Shown: positions 1 through 19,416 of the stretch, piece by piece
How positions within the stretch are numbered: position 1 is the first letter of the stretch
Layout: each line of letters starts with the position of its first letter
IMG/VR virus record: IMGVR_UViG_3300045988_139298
DNA: 19,416 bases
Origin: a virus
Reading direction: 5' to 3' (one strand)
The notes under the pieces: generated by a model
Told to the model about the DNA's origin: nothing
Database searches by the model: none
The model's input: the letters and a program-made list of their open reading frames with translations, nothing else
Program-made: the position numbers and the translations under genes

Positions 1-407
1 AAAAAAGAGTGTCAGCATGACCCTGTACCCCATTGACGTACACATGTTCACAGAACATGAACACACATAGGATAGCATTAGTTAACACTAACTAACACCA
101 TACAACACCGCCTCGCTTCGCTCGGTGTGGTCTCACTCTGTTCGGCACTGCCTCGACATGCTCCGCATGTCTCGGCTTGCCTCGCTCCGCTCGGCGTGGT
201 CTCGCTCCACTCGTCCTAGCTCCGCTCACGCACCACATAGCATACCATCACACGACACACCACCACACACCACCATATAACAATGTTCCACGTGAAACAT
301 TGACCCACACGGCTCGGTTGTGAATTATGTGAAATTATAAAAACACTTGTGTTCTAGAATAGGTGTGTTATACTATAGGTGAAAAGAAGGAGGGCTTAAG
401 AAAATGA
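1..407. repeat. Left inverted terminal repeat, 407 bp, perfect reverse complement of 19010-19416
   Basis: I reverse-complemented 1-407 in 60-nt blocks and every block matched 19010-19416. Identity ends after ATGA (base 408 differs). The terminus is 5'-AAAAAAGAG, as expected for protein-primed phi29-type genomes. Confidence 0.97.
347..374 (+). promoter_or_regulatory. Inward-facing sigma-A-type promoter inside the left ITR
   Basis: The -35 is TTGTGT (347-352) and the spacer is 16 nt. An extended -10, TGtTATACT, lies at 366-374. It is followed by SD AAGGAGGG (387-394) 9 nt before the ATG at 404. Confidence 0.6.
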
Positions 408-682
408 GTGATAAGAGATTTAAACAAATACGCAATTATTTTTATTTAATAAAAGATGAGTGTATAAAGTTGATTTCTACTTGTGATAATGCGGATGATG
501 TTAAACGTATCTTTCATGAATATTATAGTGAATTACATGGAGCTTATACAGTTGGTTTTATGTTAACCGACTATGAACATGAAAGGTCTAAACTATTAAG
601 TTTGTATAATGAGTGTTTGAGTTTAATGAATTTTAAATGTTTGTTATATATGAATGTATTAAGTGATGAGGGAGACTGTTAA
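404..682 (+). CDS. Small early protein, unknown function (92 aa)
   Basis: First ORF after the ITR promoter and SD. Its ATG lies inside the ITR. No motif recognised. Confidence 0.7.
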   Translation: MSDKRFKQIRNYFYLIKDECIKLISTCDNADDVKRIFHEYYSELHGAYTVGFMLTDYEHERSKLLSLYNECLSLMNFKCLLYMNVLSDEGDC

Positions 683-3362: not shown

Positions 3363-4091
3363 CTAAAAAATATTGAAAAATAATCCATATTCCTGTAGTT
3401 CCGCGTATAACTCATTTTCAATGGTAATAACTGCACGTCGTGACCCTTGTAATACCTCCGCTAACGTTTGGATACCGATATTACCTTTACGCTTAAAGCT
3501 GTATTCTTCATGTCCTGTCGTGTCATTTGCACTTTTTGGTTTTGTGATTGTTTTAGCAATGTTATTAACATAGTCGTTTGTTTCAATATCCACACGTCCT
3601 TCCGGAGTTACAGACTGTAAAGCAATGCTCGTATCTTCTCCACTTGCTTGTGTGTTTCCTCGACTGTCACGCGTGTATGTTTCTGTGTAGTTTGTGTTTG
3701 CTGTTGGGTCGTCTTGGTCTTGAAAAGGGATTGTTTTAAATAACGTATAATATCTATCCATATTGATTTCAAACCAGTGTTGAAGTTCAAATTTCCAATA
3801 CGCATATGTCTCTTGACCGATCTCGTCAAACCAAAAGTGCTTTAAAATACCGGTTTCAAAAGCTTTTCGTTTTTCAAGATCATCATAGAAAGGATAGTTA
3901 AAATCGAAAATCTTTTTTCTTGCGATCTCTAACACTTCCATATCGCTTAATTCATATTGAGCGTCAATTAACTCCGTAAATGCTAGGTTGTGACATACAC
4001 CGCATATAGTTTCGGTGTTTTCCGCAAGCACCGGACTTTGTAAAGTTAACAAATAATTAGGTACTTTTAATTTTTTAAACATACTAATCAC
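3363..4091 (-). CDS. Lower collar protein (phi29 gp11 position)
   Basis: It lies immediately downstream of the portal gene and overlaps it by 8 nt, matching the phi29 order tail knob, connector, lower collar. I recognised no motif, so this call rests on synteny and size. Confidence 0.6.
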   Translation of the reverse strand: MISMFKKLKVPNYLLTLQSPVLAENTETICGVCHNLAFTELIDAQYELSDMEVLEIARKKIFDFNYPFYDDLEKRKAFETGILKHFWFDEIGQETYAYWKFELQHWFEINMDRYYTLFKTIPFQDQDDPTANTNYTETYTRDSRGNTQASGEDTSIALQSVTPEGRVDIETNDYVNNIAKTITKPKSANDTTGHEEYSFKRKGNIGIQTLAEVLQGSRRAVITIENELYAELQEYGLFFNIF

Positions 4092-5025
4092 CTTCTTTTT
4101 TAATTGTTAGGTCGTCTTTAAAATCCGTAAGGCTTGTATCACTGTCTAATTCAATCAATTTTAAGATGTCCTCAAAGTCTTCATATGGTGCAAACTCAAC
4201 ACTAGCGTTTAAATTAAATTTCTTATTTAATTCATCAATGGCTTTTTTACGCTCACTAAGCCAAATATTACGAGAAGCAATAACCTGTTGATTGTTAGCG
4301 TTGACCTCATCCGATACTAGCCTTTCTTTTTTGTCCATGTTGGCATTTTCAATGCCTAATAGAGTCATGCATTCACGCAAAATCGCTTGCTTCATGCCGT
4401 GCAATTCGTCCGCAATAAAAGGTGCGTTTGTTTGTAACACGTTAACGTCTTCCGTTCTGAATCCTTTTGAAGTAAAGATCGTTTGAACGCCTTGTAAAAT
4501 CTTTTTCATGAACACTTTGAATTGCTGTAACATACGCTTATCACCTGTAATGATGTACGGTGTCCATTGCATGGTCAAATTTTGGTCCATCGTTCGACTT
4601 GTTAAAGCTAGTTTCTTAGCGAAAAAATTTAAGTATGGGAAGATACCCACATATAAAGGACTGTTCTTCATAATTACACATTCATTACTTGATAAATTCT
4701 TTTTAACAAGTGGACTTGTTGATACTGTATGATATTCGGTTGGCATTTGATAGTGGTTGAGTTTACCGCCTAGTGTGATTTCACTACAAATTAAACCTAA
4801 TCTTTCATCATCATAAAAACCAATGTAACCACGTGTTTGTAAAACATATTCTAAATAGAATGTATTAATGGACTCCGGCAAACCTTTATATTTAAACATG
4901 TTTAAACTTAGCATTTGTAAATACGTATAATAAATAAAATCCGCCTCTCCATTATTCATAGTAGCGACATCAACCGCGTTTCTACAATAATCTGTGAACG
5001 AGCTCGTATCATTTAATAAATCCAT
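4084..5025 (-). CDS. Portal / upper collar connector protein, phi29 gp10-like
   Basis: 313 aa versus about 309 aa for phi29 gp10. The segment LLGIENANMDKKERLVSDEVNAN closely matches my recollection of phi29 [23 protein letters not shown]. The N-terminal YLQ...LP..IN..FLE motif also corresponds. Confidence 0.9.
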   Translation of the reverse strand: MDLLNDTSSFTDYCRNAVDVATMNNGEADFIYYTYLQMLSLNMFKYKGLPESINTFYLEYVLQTRGYIGFYDDERLGLICSEITLGGKLNHYQMPTEYHTVSTSPLVKKNLSSNECVIMKNSPLYVGIFPYLNFFAKKLALTSRTMDQNLTMQWTPYIITGDKRMLQQFKVFMKKILQGVQTIFTSKGFRTEDVNVLQTNAPFIADELHGMKQAILRECMTLLGIENANMDKKERLVSDEVNANNQQVIASRNIWLSERKKAIDELNKKFNLNASVEFAPYEDFEDILKLIELDSDTSLTDFKDDLTIKKEGD

Positions 5026-5087: not shown

Positions 5088-7283
5088 TTAATGTACTTTT
5101 CTTTCTTTATAGTTTCCGTATCTGTCGCATTGCGTATACGAGTATCTTTCACCGTTATTTTGAGAATAATCACCAACATTTTTTGTATGCCATAGTGTTA
5201 TTCCATTATTAAATACACGCTTGATTTTTTCTAAGTCGTTCGGGTCGATGTTTGTACCTTTGATATTACATTTTACAGTTTGGATGTAGTTCCATGATAC
5301 TTTAGATCGTAAATTAGGATAGTCAATTGTATTTGTGGCATATCCTCGCATGTTCCATATTTTTTCTAATTTCTGTTTGTATTCGTCTGTAGGTCGATAA
5401 ACATATAATACGAATGTGTTTAAATCTAGTGCTATTTGTCGCATTAAATCATTCGAGCCGGTTACAATACTGTCAGCTGTTGCCTGTGCGTCATGGATAC
5501 GTGCGTTGTAACTATCCATAGCGTTTTGTATATTTGTTTGATTTTGGTACTGTGTTGTTAACTGTCTCAATTGATTTCCAATTGCTGTAGATTGACTGTT
5601 AGCACTCGCCTGTGCGTTTGCGTTTGCAAGTGCGTTTGCGTTTTGCATGTTGGTTTGTTTTGTGTTGATTTGGTTTTGCATAGCTGTTTGCCCAATACCT
5701 AAACCAGCTCCAACCAAACTACCAACAGCACCACCAATATTACCGGTTAACGCGCTGGCAATACCACCACTTAAACCGCCTATAGCACTTATACTAGCGT
5801 TTATCATGTTCGATTTATTGTGTAAATCGTTTAAATTACTCGCTAAATTTGCATTACGTGCAGTAACACTTAAATTTAAGTTATTTTGTAAGCTTGTTTG
5901 TGCGCTTAACGCATTACCGGTTGCGCTGGCTATAGCTGAATTTGTTTCGTTTGATCGTCTAATATTGGATAATCCTACGTTCATAGAGTTACGTGATGAT
6001 TGTAGCATTAAAGCGGTCGTATCACTAATAATAGGTAAGCTTGTTTCATACTGAGATTCAAACGAATTATCTAAATTTATTAAGCTTGAATAAGAATCAT
6101 TTGATTTTGTCACTTTGTAATTTAATGGCATTATATTCATTTTTGAGCTGTTGGGTGACCCCACACAGATAAATTGGGCATTTTTCATATCCTCCCATAA
6201 CTCATTTTTAAAAGCTTTTGTTGTTCCATTATTATCGCTAATAACTAAATAACTATAAGGATACGTATATATTTTAGTAAATTCACTAAATCCAATAAAA
6301 GCCGGTATATTATATACCTGTGTTTTTGAGAATGCGTTTAAATCATTTTCTAGCATGTCATTCATGGTCTTAGCTTTATAAGTTAAAATTTGATAATCTC
6401 CTTGTTGCTCACCACTAAAGCAATCACGTTTAATAACAACTTGCCCACTTTCAACAACTAAGCCCGGTATTGAATTGGTCACAATAATAGATACACATTT
6501 ACCGACTAATTTTTCATTTTTTCGTATTGCGTCTAAAACGGCTGATAATCCTGAGATTGTTACAGTTGCACCGCTTGCACTGCCAATTTTTAAAGATTTT
6601 ATATCATTTCCCGTGTACCTATTAAAAGGGAATATATAATAATTAACTTGACTTGGTGCACCTAACTGTGCGTTTGTGTAGCTGTCTTTTCCGGACATAT
6701 CACATGTCATACCTATTACAGCAAAACTAGTATTTATGTTAGGGTCTATTAAATATTGTTTATCTGAAATTAAATCTGTGCCAACTTCTATATTTTCGGG
6801 CTGTGTATTAATACAAGGTCGTTGTACACCATCACCGGTATCATAATATTGTGGTCTATGTTCATATGCGATATATGACTCCATAAAGTTATTTTCAATT
6901 TCAAACCGCCAAGTTTGTATCACATCCGTTTCAAAACTAATACTAGTCGCATTATCATTTAAGTAACCTAAACTTGTAATAAAACAATAAATCCATTTTG
7001 CTTTATTACCTGTATTTCCATTTTGATAAATCAAATAATTGTATAAACGTAGATCATCATAAACACCCGGTACGACTACTGTACCATCTTTTCTTTGATA
7101 CGTGTAATTTTCAAAAACAATATGATCGTAATTATTAATGAAAAAATTAAATTGTTTTTCGGGTGTATCGAATGCACCCCAAAACGTGTTATTCATTGCG
7201 TCAATTTCTAACCCCTTTAACAAATAAATTTTACTTTGTGGTGTAAATTGACTGTTAACAACTCCTATACTCATTTTAATCAA
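5088..7283 (-). CDS. Tail knob / major distal tail protein, phi29 gp9-like, with an enlarged central insertion
   Basis: The N-terminal segment YNYLIYQNGNTGNKAKWIYCFITSLGYLNDNATSISFETDVIQTWRFEIENNFMESYIAYEH parallels my recollection of phi29 gp9 ([54 protein letters not shown]). It lies upstream of the portal gene, as in phi29. Confidence 0.88.
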   Translation of the reverse strand: MIKMSIGVVNSQFTPQSKIYLLKGLEIDAMNNTFWGAFDTPEKQFNFFINNYDHIVFENYTYQRKDGTVVVPGVYDDLRLYNYLIYQNGNTGNKAKWIYCFITSLGYLNDNATSISFETDVIQTWRFEIENNFMESYIAYEHRPQYYDTGDGVQRPCINTQPENIEVGTDLISDKQYLIDPNINTSFAVIGMTCDMSGKDSYTNAQLGAPSQVNYYIFPFNRYTGNDIKSLKIGSASGATVTISGLSAVLDAIRKNEKLVGKCVSIIVTNSIPGLVVESGQVVIKRDCFSGEQQGDYQILTYKAKTMNDMLENDLNAFSKTQVYNIPAFIGFSEFTKIYTYPYSYLVISDNNGTTKAFKNELWEDMKNAQFICVGSPNSSKMNIMPLNYKVTKSNDSYSSLINLDNSFESQYETSLPIISDTTALMLQSSRNSMNVGLSNIRRSNETNSAIASATGNALSAQTSLQNNLNLSVTARNANLASNLNDLHNKSNMINASISAIGGLSGGIASALTGNIGGAVGSLVGAGLGIGQTAMQNQINTKQTNMQNANALANANAQASANSQSTAIGNQLRQLTTQYQNQTNIQNAMDSYNARIHDAQATADSIVTGSNDLMRQIALDLNTFVLYVYRPTDEYKQKLEKIWNMRGYATNTIDYPNLRSKVSWNYIQTVKCNIKGTNIDPNDLEKIKRVFNNGITLWHTKNVGDYSQNNGERYSYTQCDRYGNYKERKVH

Positions 7284-11921: not shown

Positions 11922-11937
11922 TGATATTATAACATAA

Positions 11938-13287
11938 CTAAACGTTATATACAACCTTAATATCACATGTTACATCTGAAACTGTATCTTTGATTGTTAC
12001 AGTTGCTAGACCTTCCGCATCAATAGCGTCTAAACCTTCAATCTTAATATGTTTCAAATCGCTTTCGATTGTAGCTTTAACTTTATCCTCAACACTAGAT
12101 GTAGCTGTTAAACTATACTTAGCATTTAAACCGCTTGTTTGAACTGTAAACGGTACGGTGATAGTCGCACCTTTACGTACTTCTACAACTTGTGGGTTAG
12201 AATAAATTGCTGTAACTTTTTCCTCAACATTACCGGAAACAAAAGCAATTGCGTTTGCAAAACGACTTGTCGCGATACCTTCCCAGTGATGCAAGAAGTA
12301 ATTCCAATATAAGCCTTTAGCATTATAAGCAACACCTACGCTATATTTTTGGTCAAATACTCTATAAATTTCTGAGTCGCATACGATAGCCTCGATAGTA
12401 CCTTGTGCCGTGCTTGGTAAAGTTGGCAATACTAATACATGAGTTTTAAATTGTGCGAACTCTAATCGGAATGTTTGCGCCAACCAATCAATGTTTAAAT
12501 AACTATTGGTTTTAGCGTTCAAAATGACATAGATATCATCATATTCATTTTGTTTTGTAACTGCCATAGCGTTATATTCATTTGTTGGCTCAGTTAGGTA
12601 AGATACGTATTCTGTAATTGTACGCGCTAATTCTCTAGCAGTGTACGTATCTGTTATGGCGTCCGTATTTACGATTTTCATGTGTCCGTTTTCGTAGTGT
12701 GTAACTAAAGCGGATTTCATATAGTTATAATCGTCTTTATTGTCACCATTATACATAGAGTCAACAATACGAGCGATCAAACTGTTTACACCATCCCATG
12801 TTACAAAGTATTTTCTTAAATCATCATCAGTAATTGTAGCTGGGTAATATGACTTTCTATTTACTACGTAGAAAGCTGTTTTAATATCAGGTAAACTTCG
12901 CTTAAAAAGAGTGTTTTCCGCGTCCGCTTGATTGTATTCGTGCTCTTTAGCGCACTCAACAAAGTATTCTTCCATAGTATAGCCTAAAGGCATGTTCTCC
13001 ATTTTAAACGGCGCTAGTTTGTTTGTTAAAATATTTCGGTGCGCGATCACTTTACCAATACGCGTTGCTAAATTCATAAACTCAACACCTAAAGTATCCG
13101 GATATTCTAATAAACCGTTCATAAACTCTAAAGAGCTTGTTTCGTTTGGGTCTCCGATTGTACTCCTAAAATTACTTGAACTCATTGCATACATCGCACT
13201 TGCGACTTCTTGCCCGGTTGGTTCGTGGTCCATTCCTAAGTCATTTTGTAACGTTTTAGTCACGTCTTTTCCTGTTGTTTTTGACAT
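11938..13287 (-). CDS. Major capsid protein, phi29 gp8-like, with a C-terminal Ig-like (BIG2-type) domain
   Basis: 449 aa versus 448 aa for phi29 gp8. It directly follows the scaffold gene. The C-terminal about 90 aa is a beta-rich Ig-like segment (VTAIYSNPQVVEVRKGATITVPFTVQ...ATVTIKDTVSDVTCDIKV). SD AGAGGTGA precedes the start. Confidence 0.85.
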   Translation of the reverse strand: MSKTTGKDVTKTLQNDLGMDHEPTGQEVASAMYAMSSSNFRSTIGDPNETSSLEFMNGLLEYPDTLGVEFMNLATRIGKVIAHRNILTNKLAPFKMENMPLGYTMEEYFVECAKEHEYNQADAENTLFKRSLPDIKTAFYVVNRKSYYPATITDDDLRKYFVTWDGVNSLIARIVDSMYNGDNKDDYNYMKSALVTHYENGHMKIVNTDAITDTYTARELARTITEYVSYLTEPTNEYNAMAVTKQNEYDDIYVILNAKTNSYLNIDWLAQTFRLEFAQFKTHVLVLPTLPSTAQGTIEAIVCDSEIYRVFDQKYSVGVAYNAKGLYWNYFLHHWEGIATSRFANAIAFVSGNVEEKVTAIYSNPQVVEVRKGATITVPFTVQTSGLNAKYSLTATSSVEDKVKATIESDLKHIKIEGLDAIDAEGLATVTIKDTVSDVTCDIKVVYNV

Positions 13288-13304: not shown

Positions 13305-13580
13305 TTAAATACCTAATTTTCTTAAATCCATTGGCGCTTCATGTTTCGGCTTTTCTCCGCCCGATTTTTCGACGCCAATTTGCATAAATAGTTTAGAGTT
13401 TGCTTCTGTTAAAGAAGTATTCTTTTCAACTAGTTTCGTGTTCTCGGCTTTCAAATTGTCTAACTCTGTATAAGTTTTCTCAACTTCAGCTCGCATATCA
13501 TTCAGCATTGTCGAGCGTTCCGCTTGATCTTCAACCGTTAACACCTCTGTGAACTTATTTCTTAATTCATCACGTTCCAT
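13305..13580 (-). CDS. Scaffolding protein, phi29 gp7-like
   Basis: 91 aa and a heptad-like helical sequence. ANSKLFMQIGV matches my recollection of phi29 gp7 SNSKLFRQIGL. It is the first gene after the late promoter. Confidence 0.85.
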   Translation of the reverse strand: MERDELRNKFTEVLTVEDQAERSTMLNDMRAEVEKTYTELDNLKAENTKLVEKNTSLTEANSKLFMQIGVEKSGGEKPKHEAPMDLRKLGI

Positions 13581-14576: not shown

Positions 14577-16403
14577 TTACCTACTCTTAATGCTGAATTG
14601 TCTATCGACTAATACAATACCACCATGTACGTGTGTTTTCTTTAAGCAGTCATTAATTACATTTCCAACTCTAAAATTATCATATGTTACATTCTGTTTC
14701 GCCTTTTGCGTCATACCAGCGCATTTTACGTTTAAATAATAACAAACACCCTCACGGATATAATACAAATTATCTTTGCAATCATTCTCACTTATATATT
14801 CTTGTTGGTGCTCCACATAATCTTTATAACTAATTTCAATTTCTTCAACATAACTTTTAGCACCAATAAAATAAGATCGTGTAAACACTGATTCTAAACC
14901 CCAATAGCCTAATTCCTTATCGTCAATAATATCTTTTATTGCGTCCGGAACTTGTGTACCCACTAGGTGTATTGAATCCGTATCAATATATGCGACTCTA
15001 TGGATACCTACCTTTTGTGCGGTTGATATTGTATATTTACGTGCGTATGCTGTGACAAACTCACCATATGGAAGGTAAATAGGATCGCGAAATTGTTCGT
15101 CAATGACCTCTTTAACTTCTCCATCTTCAAAAGTTGTATACATAGGGTCATGTAAACGTAAAACTCCATCATCTTTATCAATAAATGGAATTTTAGGCGT
15201 GACATTTGGGTTCGTTGCGAACTTCCCATAAACCGAATTTAATTGTCGCTTGGCAATAAATCTCTGTGCACCTTTAGAATTCTTCTTAACTTCCATTTGC
15301 TCGTCAATAAACTGCCTTGCAATACCAACGCAACCCCTAAATTTATATCCATTAATAAACTCAACATCATAAATATCATATTGTTCATTAAATAACTGCC
15401 AATCAACACTCGTGACAGTCATTCTAACAATATCTCCGTTTGAGCTGTCCACATATTTTTTACTCCCAAAAAACCGAGAAAACTTATCTAAGCTAATACA
15501 TGGTATATGGTCCTTTTTAATATCAAAGGCGAAACTAACAACACCTACCCATAAAGGGTATTCATCATCCTGTTGATATTCACCTTCAAAGTATATGGGT
15601 GTATCATAGGGCAATAATTCATAATACATACGACTAGGAAATAACGAATTTACGTCAAATACTATCCCTTGCCCTATCTCTTTTTCTTTTAGTTCCGGAT
15701 TTGCCCACACAAAACCACCACTGTAAGCAGGTCTTAAATCACTATCGACATTCATTTCTAAAGGTGGGAATATCTTTTCAAAACTCATAGGCAGTGTTTT
15801 CTTGAAAGCCTCAAAACTACAGCTAGTAGCTGTTATTTTATTGAATCCAAGCTTAAAACATTCGTTTAGTGCCATACCTTCAATATCGATATCATTAAAT
15901 AGATAATCTACTTCATGTGGTGTGAGTTCGTGTCCTACATCACGTTTAGCTTTATAATCTAGTTTTAATTTACGTATTGGTAAGTTAAAATCATGGGCGA
16001 TCTTCTCAATACTAAATGGAATTAATTTAAAACTATCCCATATTGTAGTTTTTGTTGACCGATAAATTGAATATTTCCACCATATTTCAATGGAATACCA
16101 CAAGCCTGTATTCGATATAATTGTTTTAAAACATCCGGTTTTAGGCTTGTCCGAATATTCATAACCATTACTTAACAGCCAACTTACAATAAACTCACCA
16201 TCAAACGCAAGATTATGAAAATATAATTTACGTGTTTTCTGTTTACACCATTCTATAAAGCCGTATATACTATTTCCATATTCTTTTATACTTAAATCTT
16301 CAACAAAACTTGCACCCCAAGCCCATACCCTACAGTCTAAAGGGTCGGTTGTAGTTTCAAAATCACAAGCCCATATTTCTTTAGGCTCTTTTTTCTTTTG
16401 CAT
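14577..16403 (-). CDS. Protein-primed family-B DNA polymerase, phi29 gp2-like
   Basis: Exonuclease motifs: ExoI DFETTT, ExoII HNLAFDGEF, ExoIII YLFNDIDI. Polymerase motifs: A DVNSLFPS, B KRQLNSVYGKFA, C YIDTDSIH. It also has the VKCAGM element found in phi29-type polymerases. Confidence 0.97.
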   Translation of the reverse strand: MQKKKEPKEIWACDFETTTDPLDCRVWAWGASFVEDLSIKEYGNSIYGFIEWCKQKTRKLYFHNLAFDGEFIVSWLLSNGYEYSDKPKTGCFKTIISNTGLWYSIEIWWKYSIYRSTKTTIWDSFKLIPFSIEKIAHDFNLPIRKLKLDYKAKRDVGHELTPHEVDYLFNDIDIEGMALNECFKLGFNKITATSCSFEAFKKTLPMSFEKIFPPLEMNVDSDLRPAYSGGFVWANPELKEKEIGQGIVFDVNSLFPSRMYYELLPYDTPIYFEGEYQQDDEYPLWVGVVSFAFDIKKDHIPCISLDKFSRFFGSKKYVDSSNGDIVRMTVTSVDWQLFNEQYDIYDVEFINGYKFRGCVGIARQFIDEQMEVKKNSKGAQRFIAKRQLNSVYGKFATNPNVTPKIPFIDKDDGVLRLHDPMYTTFEDGEVKEVIDEQFRDPIYLPYGEFVTAYARKYTISTAQKVGIHRVAYIDTDSIHLVGTQVPDAIKDIIDDKELGYWGLESVFTRSYFIGAKSYVEEIEISYKDYVEHQQEYISENDCKDNLYYIREGVCYYLNVKCAGMTQKAKQNVTYDNFRVGNVINDCLKKTHVHGGIVLVDRQFSIKSR

Positions 16404-16421: not shown

Positions 16422-17258
16422 TTATTCTTTATATGTAACAATTCCATCTTTGACATAGGCGCGCCCTGTAAACACAGCCAAACTATCTTTTACATCTTTT
16501 AAATCCGTCTGAATACTTTTACTTAATTGTTCATTCACAAACTTTTGATTTTCTGTATATTCACGACTTAAATCAAGATACTTAAATGTGTTTATGGCTT
16601 TTCGTTCTTGATAAAACCATTTAACTAAATCTTTATCTGATAAAGATTGAATATCTTCTAATATTTGTTTTCCTTCTTCTTCTGTAATATTCATACCTTC
16701 TATTTGTTCGGATATTGCTTTTTTATAATTTTTTCTCAACGTTCTGATTTTCTTTGACTTCTTTTTCGTATTTTCTTTTAAACTTTCAATTCGATTATCT
16801 AACTGTTTAGGGTATCGATATGTTTGAATGTTAACATGATGAACTGGCTCAAAAAATCCGCCTCTATCATCTTTTAATACAGACAATGCCTGCTTAACAC
16901 TTACATTTGTGGTTATACCGCCTTTTGTTTCCTTTAATTTTGTTAACCCAACACTTCTTGCTAGTTTCTTTCTTTGTTTGTTCTGTTTATCCACTAGTTT
17001 ATTAGCCTTTTCAATGTCGTTACGGTTAAATACAACACCATATTGATTTTCAATATATCTATTTTCTTTATTAAATTTTTCAATTGATTTTAAATATTTG
17101 TTGAATTCCTTACGGTCGTTAAAATCTTTAATGGTTCTAATGTCCGTAAAAACGACATCCTGCCCCATGTTTTGCGCTTTTGTGGCGGTTCGTTTCGCAC
17201 TTGCTATAGCATTTCTTAGACGCTTAACATCTTTCGTGCTTTTTCGCATTTTAGCCAT
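16422..17258 (-). CDS. Terminal protein (replication primer), phi29 gp3-like
   Basis: It lies immediately upstream of the polymerase gene. It is basic and Lys-rich. FNDRKEFNKYLKSIEKFN...NQYGVVF parallels my recollection of phi29 gp3 (FETRAQFNKWKEQASSF...NAYGVVA). ATG 17258 is preferred over GTG 17267, which lies inside the SD AAGGGGGTG. Confidence 0.85.
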   Translation of the reverse strand: MAKMRKSTKDVKRLRNAIASAKRTATKAQNMGQDVVFTDIRTIKDFNDRKEFNKYLKSIEKFNKENRYIENQYGVVFNRNDIEKANKLVDKQNKQRKKLARSVGLTKLKETKGGITTNVSVKQALSVLKDDRGGFFEPVHHVNIQTYRYPKQLDNRIESLKENTKKKSKKIRTLRKNYKKAISEQIEGMNITEEEGKQILEDIQSLSDKDLVKWFYQERKAINTFKYLDLSREYTENQKFVNEQLSKSIQTDLKDVKDSLAVFTGRAYVKDGIVTYKE

Positions 17259-17289
17259 TTTAAACACCCCCTTTTAAGTCAAAAAATAA

Positions 17290-17312
17290 AAGGGTGTTTG
17301 GCTAACACCCTT
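17290..17312 (-). terminator. Intrinsic terminator or attenuator between the SSB-like and terminal-protein genes
   Basis: The stem is aagggtgt / acaccctt. It is followed by TTTTATTTTTTG on the - strand, directly after the stop at 17324. Confidence 0.6.
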
Positions 17313-17323
17313 ATTTTATTAGG

Positions 17324-17725
17324 CTATTTTACAGCCATGCTTAAATATTTATTCGAACTTGAGTTTGATTTCTTCTGAATAATAGTCACACATACCGGTT
17401 CTTTCGTCCAATCGTAGTTAAATACCTGCTTTAACTGTTTCAATGATTGTAAGAAAGGTTTACTATTTGTAGCATATGCTTTACCTTCTTTATCAATTAC
17501 AGTGATTAGTTTACTACAAATAATCTCACCTGTTTTTTCATTTTCTTTTTCTACATCTTGCAAAATGTAACCTGTCAACCACAAATCTTTACCGACTTGA
17601 TCGCTTAAACCTTCCGCATTATTTACCGCGTTGAATAAGTTAACACGTTGCTCGTGTGTCATGTCCTCAGTTACAACCAAACCTGTATTTTCCATTGCCA
17701 TTACTTCATTTCCTAAATTTTCCAT
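17324..17725 (-). CDS. Single-stranded DNA-binding protein, phi29 gp5-like
   Basis: 133 aa, upstream of the terminal-protein gene. Three segments (LFNAVNN, ITVIDKEGKAYATNSK, VTIIQKKSNSSSNKYLSM) align by eye with my recollection of phi29 gp5 (IFNAQTG, TTIFAADGSLYSAISK, VKVVQGTSSKGNVFFSL). Confidence 0.6.
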   Translation of the reverse strand: MENLGNEVMAMENTGLVVTEDMTHEQRVNLFNAVNNAEGLSDQVGKDLWLTGYILQDVEKENEKTGEIICSKLITVIDKEGKAYATNSKPFLQSLKQLKQVFNYDWTKEPVCVTIIQKKSNSSSNKYLSMAVK

Positions 17726-18755: not shown

Positions 18756-19013
18756 TTAATCCATACGGATTTGACCACTAGCATACTTAAGTAATTCATC
18801 TGATAGATCAGCAAACTGTAAGACTAAATAATCAAAATCACTAACTGTAACATCTTCGTCTTTTAAAGCGTTAAGTATAATAATGTGCATTGAATTAATA
18901 TAATTAACAATTAACACATTTTTAAATTCATCTTCATCCACAACCTTAATGGACTCTATAGCATTATTGTAAATATTCAATAGAACACTATCATATACTT
19001 CTTTTAATGTCAT
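18756..19013 (-). CDS. Strongly acidic small early protein (85 aa)
   Basis: First ORF after the right-ITR promoter and SD, with its ATG inside the ITR. By hand count it has 16 Asp/Glu against 6 Lys/Arg. No motif recognised. Confidence 0.7.
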   Translation of the reverse strand: MTLKEVYDSVLLNIYNNAIESIKVVDEDEFKNVLIVNYINSMHIIILNALKDEDVTVSDFDYLVLQFADLSDELLKYASGQIRMD

Positions 19014-19416
19014 TTTCTTAAGCCCTCCTTCTTTTCACCTATAGTATAACACACCTATTCTAGAACACAAGTGTTTTTATAATTTCACATAATTCACAAC
19101 CGAGCCGTGTGGGTCAATGTTTCACGTGGAACATTGTTATATGGTGGTGTGTGGTGGTGTGTCGTGTGATGGTATGCTATGTGGTGCGTGAGCGGAGCTA
19201 GGACGAGTGGAGCGAGACCACGCCGAGCGGAGCGAGGCAAGCCGAGACATGCGGAGCATGTCGAGGCAGTGCCGAACAGAGTGAGACCACACCGAGCGAA
19301 GCGAGGCGGTGTTGTATGGTGTTAGTTAGTGTTAACTAATGCTATCCTATGTGTGTTCATGTTCTGTGAACATGTGTACGTCAATGGGGTACAGGGTCAT
19401 GCTGACACTCTTTTTT
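19010..19416. repeat. Right inverted terminal repeat, 407 bp
   Basis: Exact reverse complement of 1-407. It ends ...CTCTTTTTT-3'. Confidence 0.97.
19043..19070 (-). promoter_or_regulatory. Identical inward-facing promoter inside the right ITR
   Basis: This is the mirror copy of 347-374. It drives the ATG at 19013 through the same SD and 5' UTR. Confidence 0.6.

Follow-up and report, generated by a model that had tools for sequence, protein, structure and literature searches.

A three-part inverted terminal repeat in a phi29-like gut phage genome places a presumed origin and a predicted early promoter with its ribosome site at both ends

Why does a phi29-like phage genome end in an inverted terminal repeat (ITR) of 407 nucleotides, when the ITR of phi29 itself is 6 bp (PMC4974454, PMC6266182) and those of Bacillus phi29-like phages are 6-16 bp (PMC6266182)? 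This question is raised by IMG/VR record IMGVR_UViG_3300045988_139298, a stretch of 19,416 nucleotides that we analysed as a whole and refer to as the window. A repeat search, together with direct reading of the right arm, shows that positions 1-407 and 19010-19416 form an inverted repeat of 407 nt that is 100% complementary, although the absence of mismatches is a slightly weaker statement than it appears, because both arms share one node in short-read assembly graphs and isolated differences between them could have been collapsed. A first-pass annotation, made from the sequence, had already described this perfect repeat, and had further proposed that it is more than a replication origin, that it gives both terminal genes the same expression signals, and that the ends are homogenised up to a precise boundary. 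Our preferred reading, to which we assign a probability of about 80%, is that the window is a complete phi29-like protein-primed genome with three-part ITRs that share an origin, an early promoter and a Shine-Dalgarno (SD) sequence, and whose ends are kept identical by copying.

The window comprises the entire linear genome of a gut podovirus that is phi29-like (Salasmaviridae-type) and uncultured. It encodes a family-B protein-primed DNA polymerase (14577-16403, minus strand; PF03175, E = 1.9e-61; phrog_1907, E = 5e-141) that shares 44% amino-acid identity with the phi29 polymerase across 99% of its length. Profile matches, all exceeding curated cut-offs, identify a morphogenesis set that phi29 has as well: the gp16 packaging ATPase (1612-2628; PF05894), the gp10 connector (4084-5025; PF05352), the gp9 tail knob (5088-7283; PF20934) and a phi29-type major capsid protein (11938-13287; PF25622). 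A scaffold protein gene lies at 13305-13580 and a single-stranded DNA-binding protein (SSB) gene at 17324-17725 (phrog_6243, E = 3.5e-18), and these are the only early ORFs that are not orphans with respect to Pfam and PHROG. Searches of Pfam, PHROGs, PDB and 50,697 phage records gave no homologue of a 281-aa ORF (16422-17267, minus strand), which is named a putative terminal protein solely for its position directly upstream of the polymerase gene.

The minus strand carries nearly all genes, in a train that extends from the right ITR to position 1612. The left ITR leads into five orphan ORFs (404-1587) that are convergent with this minus-strand gene train, and a bidirectional terminator at 1586-1612 closes both the left early unit and the long train. 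A terminator-like hairpin (17290-17312, minus strand) lies 3′ of the SSB gene, and is likely to stop or attenuate transcription of the right immediate-early unit before the putative terminal-protein and polymerase genes. More than 100 close relatives of this phage, with polymerases 89-97% identical, are present in IMG/VR, and searches of cultured-phage records gave neither a near nor a distant DNA match to the genome or the ITR. As for the host, the endolysin resembles lysins of Streptococcus and Clostridium innocuum phages at 31-37% identity, which is a weak clue. A related phage contig of 20,113 nt (CAAGJJ010000031.1; L141/L142) was binned in a human-gut ‘Clostridia bacterium’ metagenome-assembled genome, and this may be a weak pointer to the host or an error of binning.

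An alignment of 15 full-length ITRs from relatives, in which we calculated mean pairwise identities, reveals that the repeat is tripartite: a terminal block of about 57 nt is followed by a filler of 39-255 nt and then by a conserved inner block. The terminal block of the window (1-63, plus strand; 77% identity over 7-63) contains an A-run at 1-6, the sequence GAGTGTCA and a palindrome, CATGTTC-ACA-GAACATG, at 43-59, and its predicted fold as single-stranded DNA has a z-score of -3.2. It is the likely origin of protein-primed replication. The ends read AAAAAAGAGTG, indicating a linear genome with ITRs that open with a short run of a single nucleotide, which allows sliding-back. The window opens with six A-nucleotides; most relatives have three, L022 has four and L031 has five. 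The true terminus of the relatives is AAA, and the six-A start of the window either is a real variant of the slide-back run or comes from an end that was not assembled with certainty.

The filler (64-277, plus strand, mirrored at 19140-19353) is hypervariable, with a mean pairwise identity of 27%. Its GC content is 57%, compared with about 28% for the genome, and on the strand whose 5′ end is at the terminus it has 29-46% C and 5-17% G in all 15 ITRs. The motifs TCGCTCCGCTC, CACCACAC and CTAACACC recur in it. The filler is dispensable and fast-evolving, and it keeps its composition and skew although its sequence and length vary. We considered a structured or packaging RNA in this GC-rich core, and rejected it: Rfam gave no match, the RNA folds on the two strands are no better than those of shuffled sequences (z = -1.5 and -1.3), and the block varies greatly and is all but missing from some relatives. 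Two copies of a Chi-like AGCGG that point to the ends were likewise set aside as nonspecific, given 10 + 3 copies in the body of the genome.

The region between the filler and the promoter (278-346, plus strand) is conserved at 81% identity. The palindrome CAATGTTCCACGTGAAACATTG lies in it at 281-302, at about -90 relative to the predicted transcription start, as does an A-rich tract resembling an UP element, and the region is a candidate for regulator binding. The predicted early sigma-A promoter (347-374, plus strand) is, at 91% identity, the best-conserved segment of the ITR. It consists of a -35-like TTGTGT (347-352), a 16-nt spacer, a TG at 366-367 and the -10 hexamer TATACT (369-374), and transcription is predicted to start at about 381 on the plus strand and about 19036 on the minus strand. 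The leader and SD together (375-394) are 69% identical and fall into three types. The SD itself, AAGGAGGG (387-394, plus strand), is separated by 9 nt from the ATG at 404-406, and all relatives carry either AAGGAGG or AAAGAGGG as their SD. On the minus strand, the right-end copy places the promoter at 19043-19070, the SD at 19023-19030 and the ATG at 19011-19013. The first-pass annotation had predicted an extended -10 promoter and an SD in the inner ITR that feed two unrelated first genes, and these elements are present at just these positions. It was also right that the ITR exceeds an origin, and the inner block is the best conserved across the 15 relatives (91% promoter identity versus 27% in the middle).

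The pattern of conservation is that of a promoter with additional features. In the relatives the promoter has the form TTGTaT-16-TGTGcTATAAT. Across the 15 ITRs, the TTG and the fixed 16-nt spacer are kept, the TG is present in 14, and the first T, the A at the second position and the T at the sixth position of the -10 are invariant. The -35 is weak, matching the consensus at three of six positions, and because the match comprises just the TTG, a generic promoter scan missed the site. The spacer palindrome TTCTAGAA (352-359) is invariant to a degree that exceeds what a promoter needs, which suggests an operator. The promoter pattern with this core occurs in the genome only in the two ITRs; 0 matches are expected by chance. 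The genome has one other perfect extended -10 (TGTTATAAT; 11926-11934, minus strand). It lies just past the 3′ end of the capsid gene, ahead of the fibre genes, and is a possible late promoter. Palindromes of the form ATGTT..AACAT are found six times in the window versus 1.05 expected, and four of the six are inside the ITRs: at 44-58 in the origin block and at 283-300, about 90 nt upstream of the predicted transcription start, with mirror copies at 19359-19373 and 19117-19134. The origin and the promoter region might therefore be recognised by a single protein. Two other promoter candidates in the ITR were rejected. A possible second promoter, TTGACC-17-AATTAT at 300-328, has a -35 that reads ATGACC or ATGACA in 13 of the 15 relatives, and an outward promoter would depend on a minus-strand TATAAT at about 336-341 that is specific to the window (TGTAAT in relatives), with no terminator near the terminus. 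At the level of sequence and conservation, the repeat at both ends contains an inward host-type promoter and an SD, followed by small early genes.

These shared signals precede two different genes. The first gene on the left (404-682, plus strand) encodes a 92-aa orphan of what we call the MSDKRFKQ family, for which Pfam and PHROG gave no match; the family provides the first gene at the same end in five relatives. The first gene on the right (18756-19013, minus strand) encodes an 85-aa orphan of the MTLKEVYD family, which is first at the polymerase-proximal end in five relatives. BLASTP aligns the two ORFs with each other not even at E<=100, so they are unrelated. First-gene families are mostly end-specific among the relatives, with the exception of an MKEIIKE... 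family that provides the first gene of the polymerase end in three genomes and of the opposite end in two others.

In the window, both ends read alike through ...AAGGAGGGCTTAAGAAAATGA / ...TTGTGTTCTAGAATAGGTGTGTTATACTATAGGTGAAAAGAAGGAGGGCTTAAGAAAATGA and then differ, the left continuing with G and the right with C, so the arms diverge one base past the ATG. The first-pass annotation had emphasised this position, which is indeed seen, although its exactness is in part fortuitous, since a similar leader of the TTAAGAAAATGA type is native to both gene families. Moreover, the idea of a precise boundary did not survive a comparison of both ends of 26 related genomes, whose edges range from before the -10 to beyond two genes. 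In 22 of the 26, the identical repeat covers the promoter completely and the SD at least in part. Its edge lies between the SD and the ATG in 14 (counting G022, where it is inside the SD), 1-37 nt into the ORF in six, as in the window, and inside or just before the -10 in three (G007, G009 and G030), each arm of which has its own -10 and SD. In the remaining genomes, G023, G018 and G019, it is far inside. The repeat of G023 (L029, 1-758) is 753 nt long and includes two whole genes, one of them of the MSDKRFKQ family that is first on the left in the window, and its edge likewise falls between an SD and an ATG. That of G018 (L137-L138) spans at least about 900 nt, also includes two whole genes and stops 4 nt past an ATG, so that in both genomes the enclosed early genes are present twice. 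The repeat of G019 stops inside a gene. Where the repeat overshoots a start codon, chimeric N-termini result, as in G001 (MTKVE fused to MTLREVYE), G024 (from the second ATG) and G028.

The ITRs of the relatives are 68-78% identical to that of the window and differ by large indels, while the polymerases are 89-97% identical; within each genome, the arms are identical. This divergence between genomes combined with identity within them implies concerted evolution of the ends, and the homogenisation that had been proposed for the window is thereby supported. The edge wanders, and its usual stop at gene starts is most simply explained by selection for intact downstream genes.

How far does this arrangement resemble known systems? 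The closest comparison is Cp-1 of Streptococcus pneumoniae (NC_001825; Salasmaviridae, Cepunavirus). As in the window, one end leads inward through the early genes, among them that of the polymerase, and on into late genes of the same orientation, and the opposite end has a small early unit that converges on them. Sigma-A early promoters are duplicated at both ends in association with a long terminal repeat. The annotated ITR of Cp-1 is 236 nt, and alignment extends the repeat to about 352 nt with about 10 mismatches. The imperfect stretch (237 to about 352) contains two TTGACA...TATAAT promoters at both ends, and the mapped transcription starts are at 351 (PE1) and 357 (PE2) on the left, and at 351 (PE4) and 257 (PE5) from the right end, with PE5 straddling the edge of the perfect repeat. 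Since Cp-1 has starts mapped 351 nt from both ends, the symmetric early expression that had been proposed for the window is a sound inference; expression from whichever end enters the cell first, which the first-pass annotation had also proposed, is speculation. Cp-1 also differs from the window. Its promoter-bearing repeat is imperfect and stops just past the start site, before the SD, whereas that of the window is perfect through the leader, SD and ATG. In addition, Cp-1 lacks a GC-rich filler and has its promoters as a tandem pair, and the ITRs of the two phages have no detectable sequence similarity.

The Lactococcus phage asccphi28 (NC_010363; Salasmaviridae) has an ITR of 577 nt within which putative promoters that point inward, P2 and P7, are annotated at both ends, and an imperfect similarity continues through the SD to within a few nucleotides of both first start codons. 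It also has an inward-reading SSB gene near one end. Its promoters are predicted only, its ITR sequence is unrelated to that of the window, and it has an annotated outward promoter-terminator unit in the ITR, whereas the ITR of the window has no conserved outward -10 or terminator. The contrast with the 6-bp ITR of phi29, which the first-pass annotation had drawn, is correct, but it overstates the novelty of the window because long promoter-bearing ITRs were already known in Salasmaviridae, in Cp-1 (236 bp) and asccphi28 (577 bp). The literature that we searched contained no paper on promoters inside phi29-like ITRs, and the precedent consists of the GenBank annotations of these two phages. 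Phi29 itself shares with the window protein-primed replication from A-run termini, and an early promoter, C2, that lies near the right end and reads inward into small early genes. Its main early operon is transcribed from the internal promoters A2b/A2c toward the left end, and its ends are thus transcriptionally non-equivalent. Outside bacteria, adenovirus ITRs combine an origin with transcription elements (sites serving E1A and E4), and poxvirus repeats carry whole genes. In adenoviruses, poxviruses and linear replicons, end-to-end copying keeps the terminal repeats identical, and their edges migrate over evolutionary time. Adenoviruses and poxviruses are, however, eukaryotic viruses with unrelated proteins, and the window differs from them in that its ends share a complete bacterial promoter and ribosome site.

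Our reading depends on the repeat being real, and it could in principle be an assembly artefact, either a k-mer overlap or a duplicated contig end. Such artefacts do occur among the relatives. The ‘ITRs’ of seven are 99 or 119 nt long, exactly the word sizes of assemblers, and the contig of G024 (L027) opens with 42 nt of inner ITR sequence folded back beyond the terminus, probably a chimera. The 99- and 119-nt cases are overlaps of word length, but they are truncated on the outer side alone and keep their inner boundary at the SD/ATG. IMG/VR classes 26 of 30 related records as ITR-bounded. A length of 407 matches no assembler word size, and homologues of the ITR are found at both ends in at least 24 IMG/VR relatives, with full-length versions of 200-435 nt in a dozen independent contigs. 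Furthermore, in five related IMG/VR contigs that are independent of each other (L029, L037, L064, L072 and L080), an Illumina P7/read-2 adapter (...GTGCTCTTCCGATCT) is joined directly to AAAGAGTG or AAATAGTG, the conserved motif with which the repeat begins. Since this arises only when many library fragments begin at the same place, these are physical DNA ends. (In these public records, the first 5-68 nt are contamination by untrimmed adapter with its index.) The possibility that the ITR is an assembly artefact, which the first-pass annotation had named as a check on its proposal, has thus become extremely improbable. A milder version has a small but appreciable chance of being correct, namely that the ITR is real and slightly imperfect, like the inner 116 nt of the Cp-1 repeat, so that collapsed differences make the precision of the edge partly technical. 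De Bruijn assemblies derive both arms from one graph node, and the phages closest in layout behave in this way: Cp-1, sequenced from an isolate, is perfect for 236 nt and then imperfect to about 352, and asccphi28 has an imperfect tail beyond 577 nt. On the other hand, clustered differences between arms are resolved in the relatives, as in G007, G009 and G030, which diverge from the -10 onward.

A different objection accepts the repeat and concerns its function. The inner block could serve replication, for example by binding a p6-like or other double-stranded-DNA-binding protein that opens the ends, in which case the promoter hexamers would be incidental and the early promoters elsewhere. This would account for the conservation of 278-346 and the spacer palindrome beyond the needs of a bare promoter, for the ATGTT/AACAT half-sites common to the origin and inner blocks, and for a -35 so weak that a generic scan overlooked the site. 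We nevertheless regard it as unlikely, because the conservation is promoter-like (TTG, TG, the three invariant -10 positions and a constant 16-nt spacing), every relative has a strong SD and an ATG immediately after the site at both ends, and the equivalent sites of Cp-1 have mapped starts. Moreover, the alternative hexamers at 300-328 are not conserved. We thus retain the reading in which the inner block is an early promoter and ribosome site within a real repeat.

Under this preferred reading, and by analogy with phi29, replication would be protein-primed from both ends, with the terminal block of about 60 nt acting as the origin through phi29-like sliding-back. The host's sigma-A RNA polymerase would use the promoter TTGTGT-16-TGtTATACT to produce transcripts with a leader of about 23 nt before the SD, and because the repeat reaches the start codon, RNA polymerase and ribosomes would meet the same signals at both ends. 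Expression would proceed inward, on the left through the five orphan ORFs up to the terminator at 1586-1612, and on the right through orphan ORFs and the SSB gene to the hairpin at 17290-17312, and then into the putative terminal-protein and polymerase genes. The palindromes TTCTAGAA in the spacer and CAATGTTCCACGTGAAACATTG at about -90 would probably let one regulator switch both ends together. Identical arms would result from repeated copying of one end onto the other, for which panhandle or strand-switch repair during strand-displacement replication, as in adenovirus, is a likely route. The reach of copying would not be programmed, but limited by selection to keep the differing downstream genes intact, which would leave the edge usually at the SD/ATG junction.

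A broader interpretation, which we offer tentatively and think somewhat doubtful, is that the ITR is a portable promoter and ribosome-site cassette whose edge is moved by end-to-end copying, and that it provides a regular route by which early genes of protein-primed phages are duplicated, relocated or fused. The change of ends by the MKEIIKE... family, the whole-gene repeats of G023 and G018, and the chimeras of G001, G024 and G028 fit this interpretation. So does the skew of the filler towards C and away from G, which might make the two ITRs of a displaced strand pair with each other more readily than fold into local hairpins.

The layout of the window is not new. It is already represented by the cultured phages Cp-1 and asccphi28, of which the window is a clear further example, and because these two already show the principle, what is known of phage biology is unchanged. 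The relatives add about 26 natural variants of a long-ITR phi29-like terminal repeat that combines a presumed origin with a predicted early expression unit common to both ends, and whose inner edge is best explained by selection at the starts of genes, with no fixed signal involved. In practice, this helps to annotate uncultured small podoviruses, where the early promoter and the true ends can be read from the ITR, and to tell real ITRs from assembler artefacts. It also supplies a compact Gram-positive promoter and ribosome-binding-site module, and origin fragments, for protein-primed replication systems. The main value, however, is the comparative picture of a terminal repeat whose edge is mobile.
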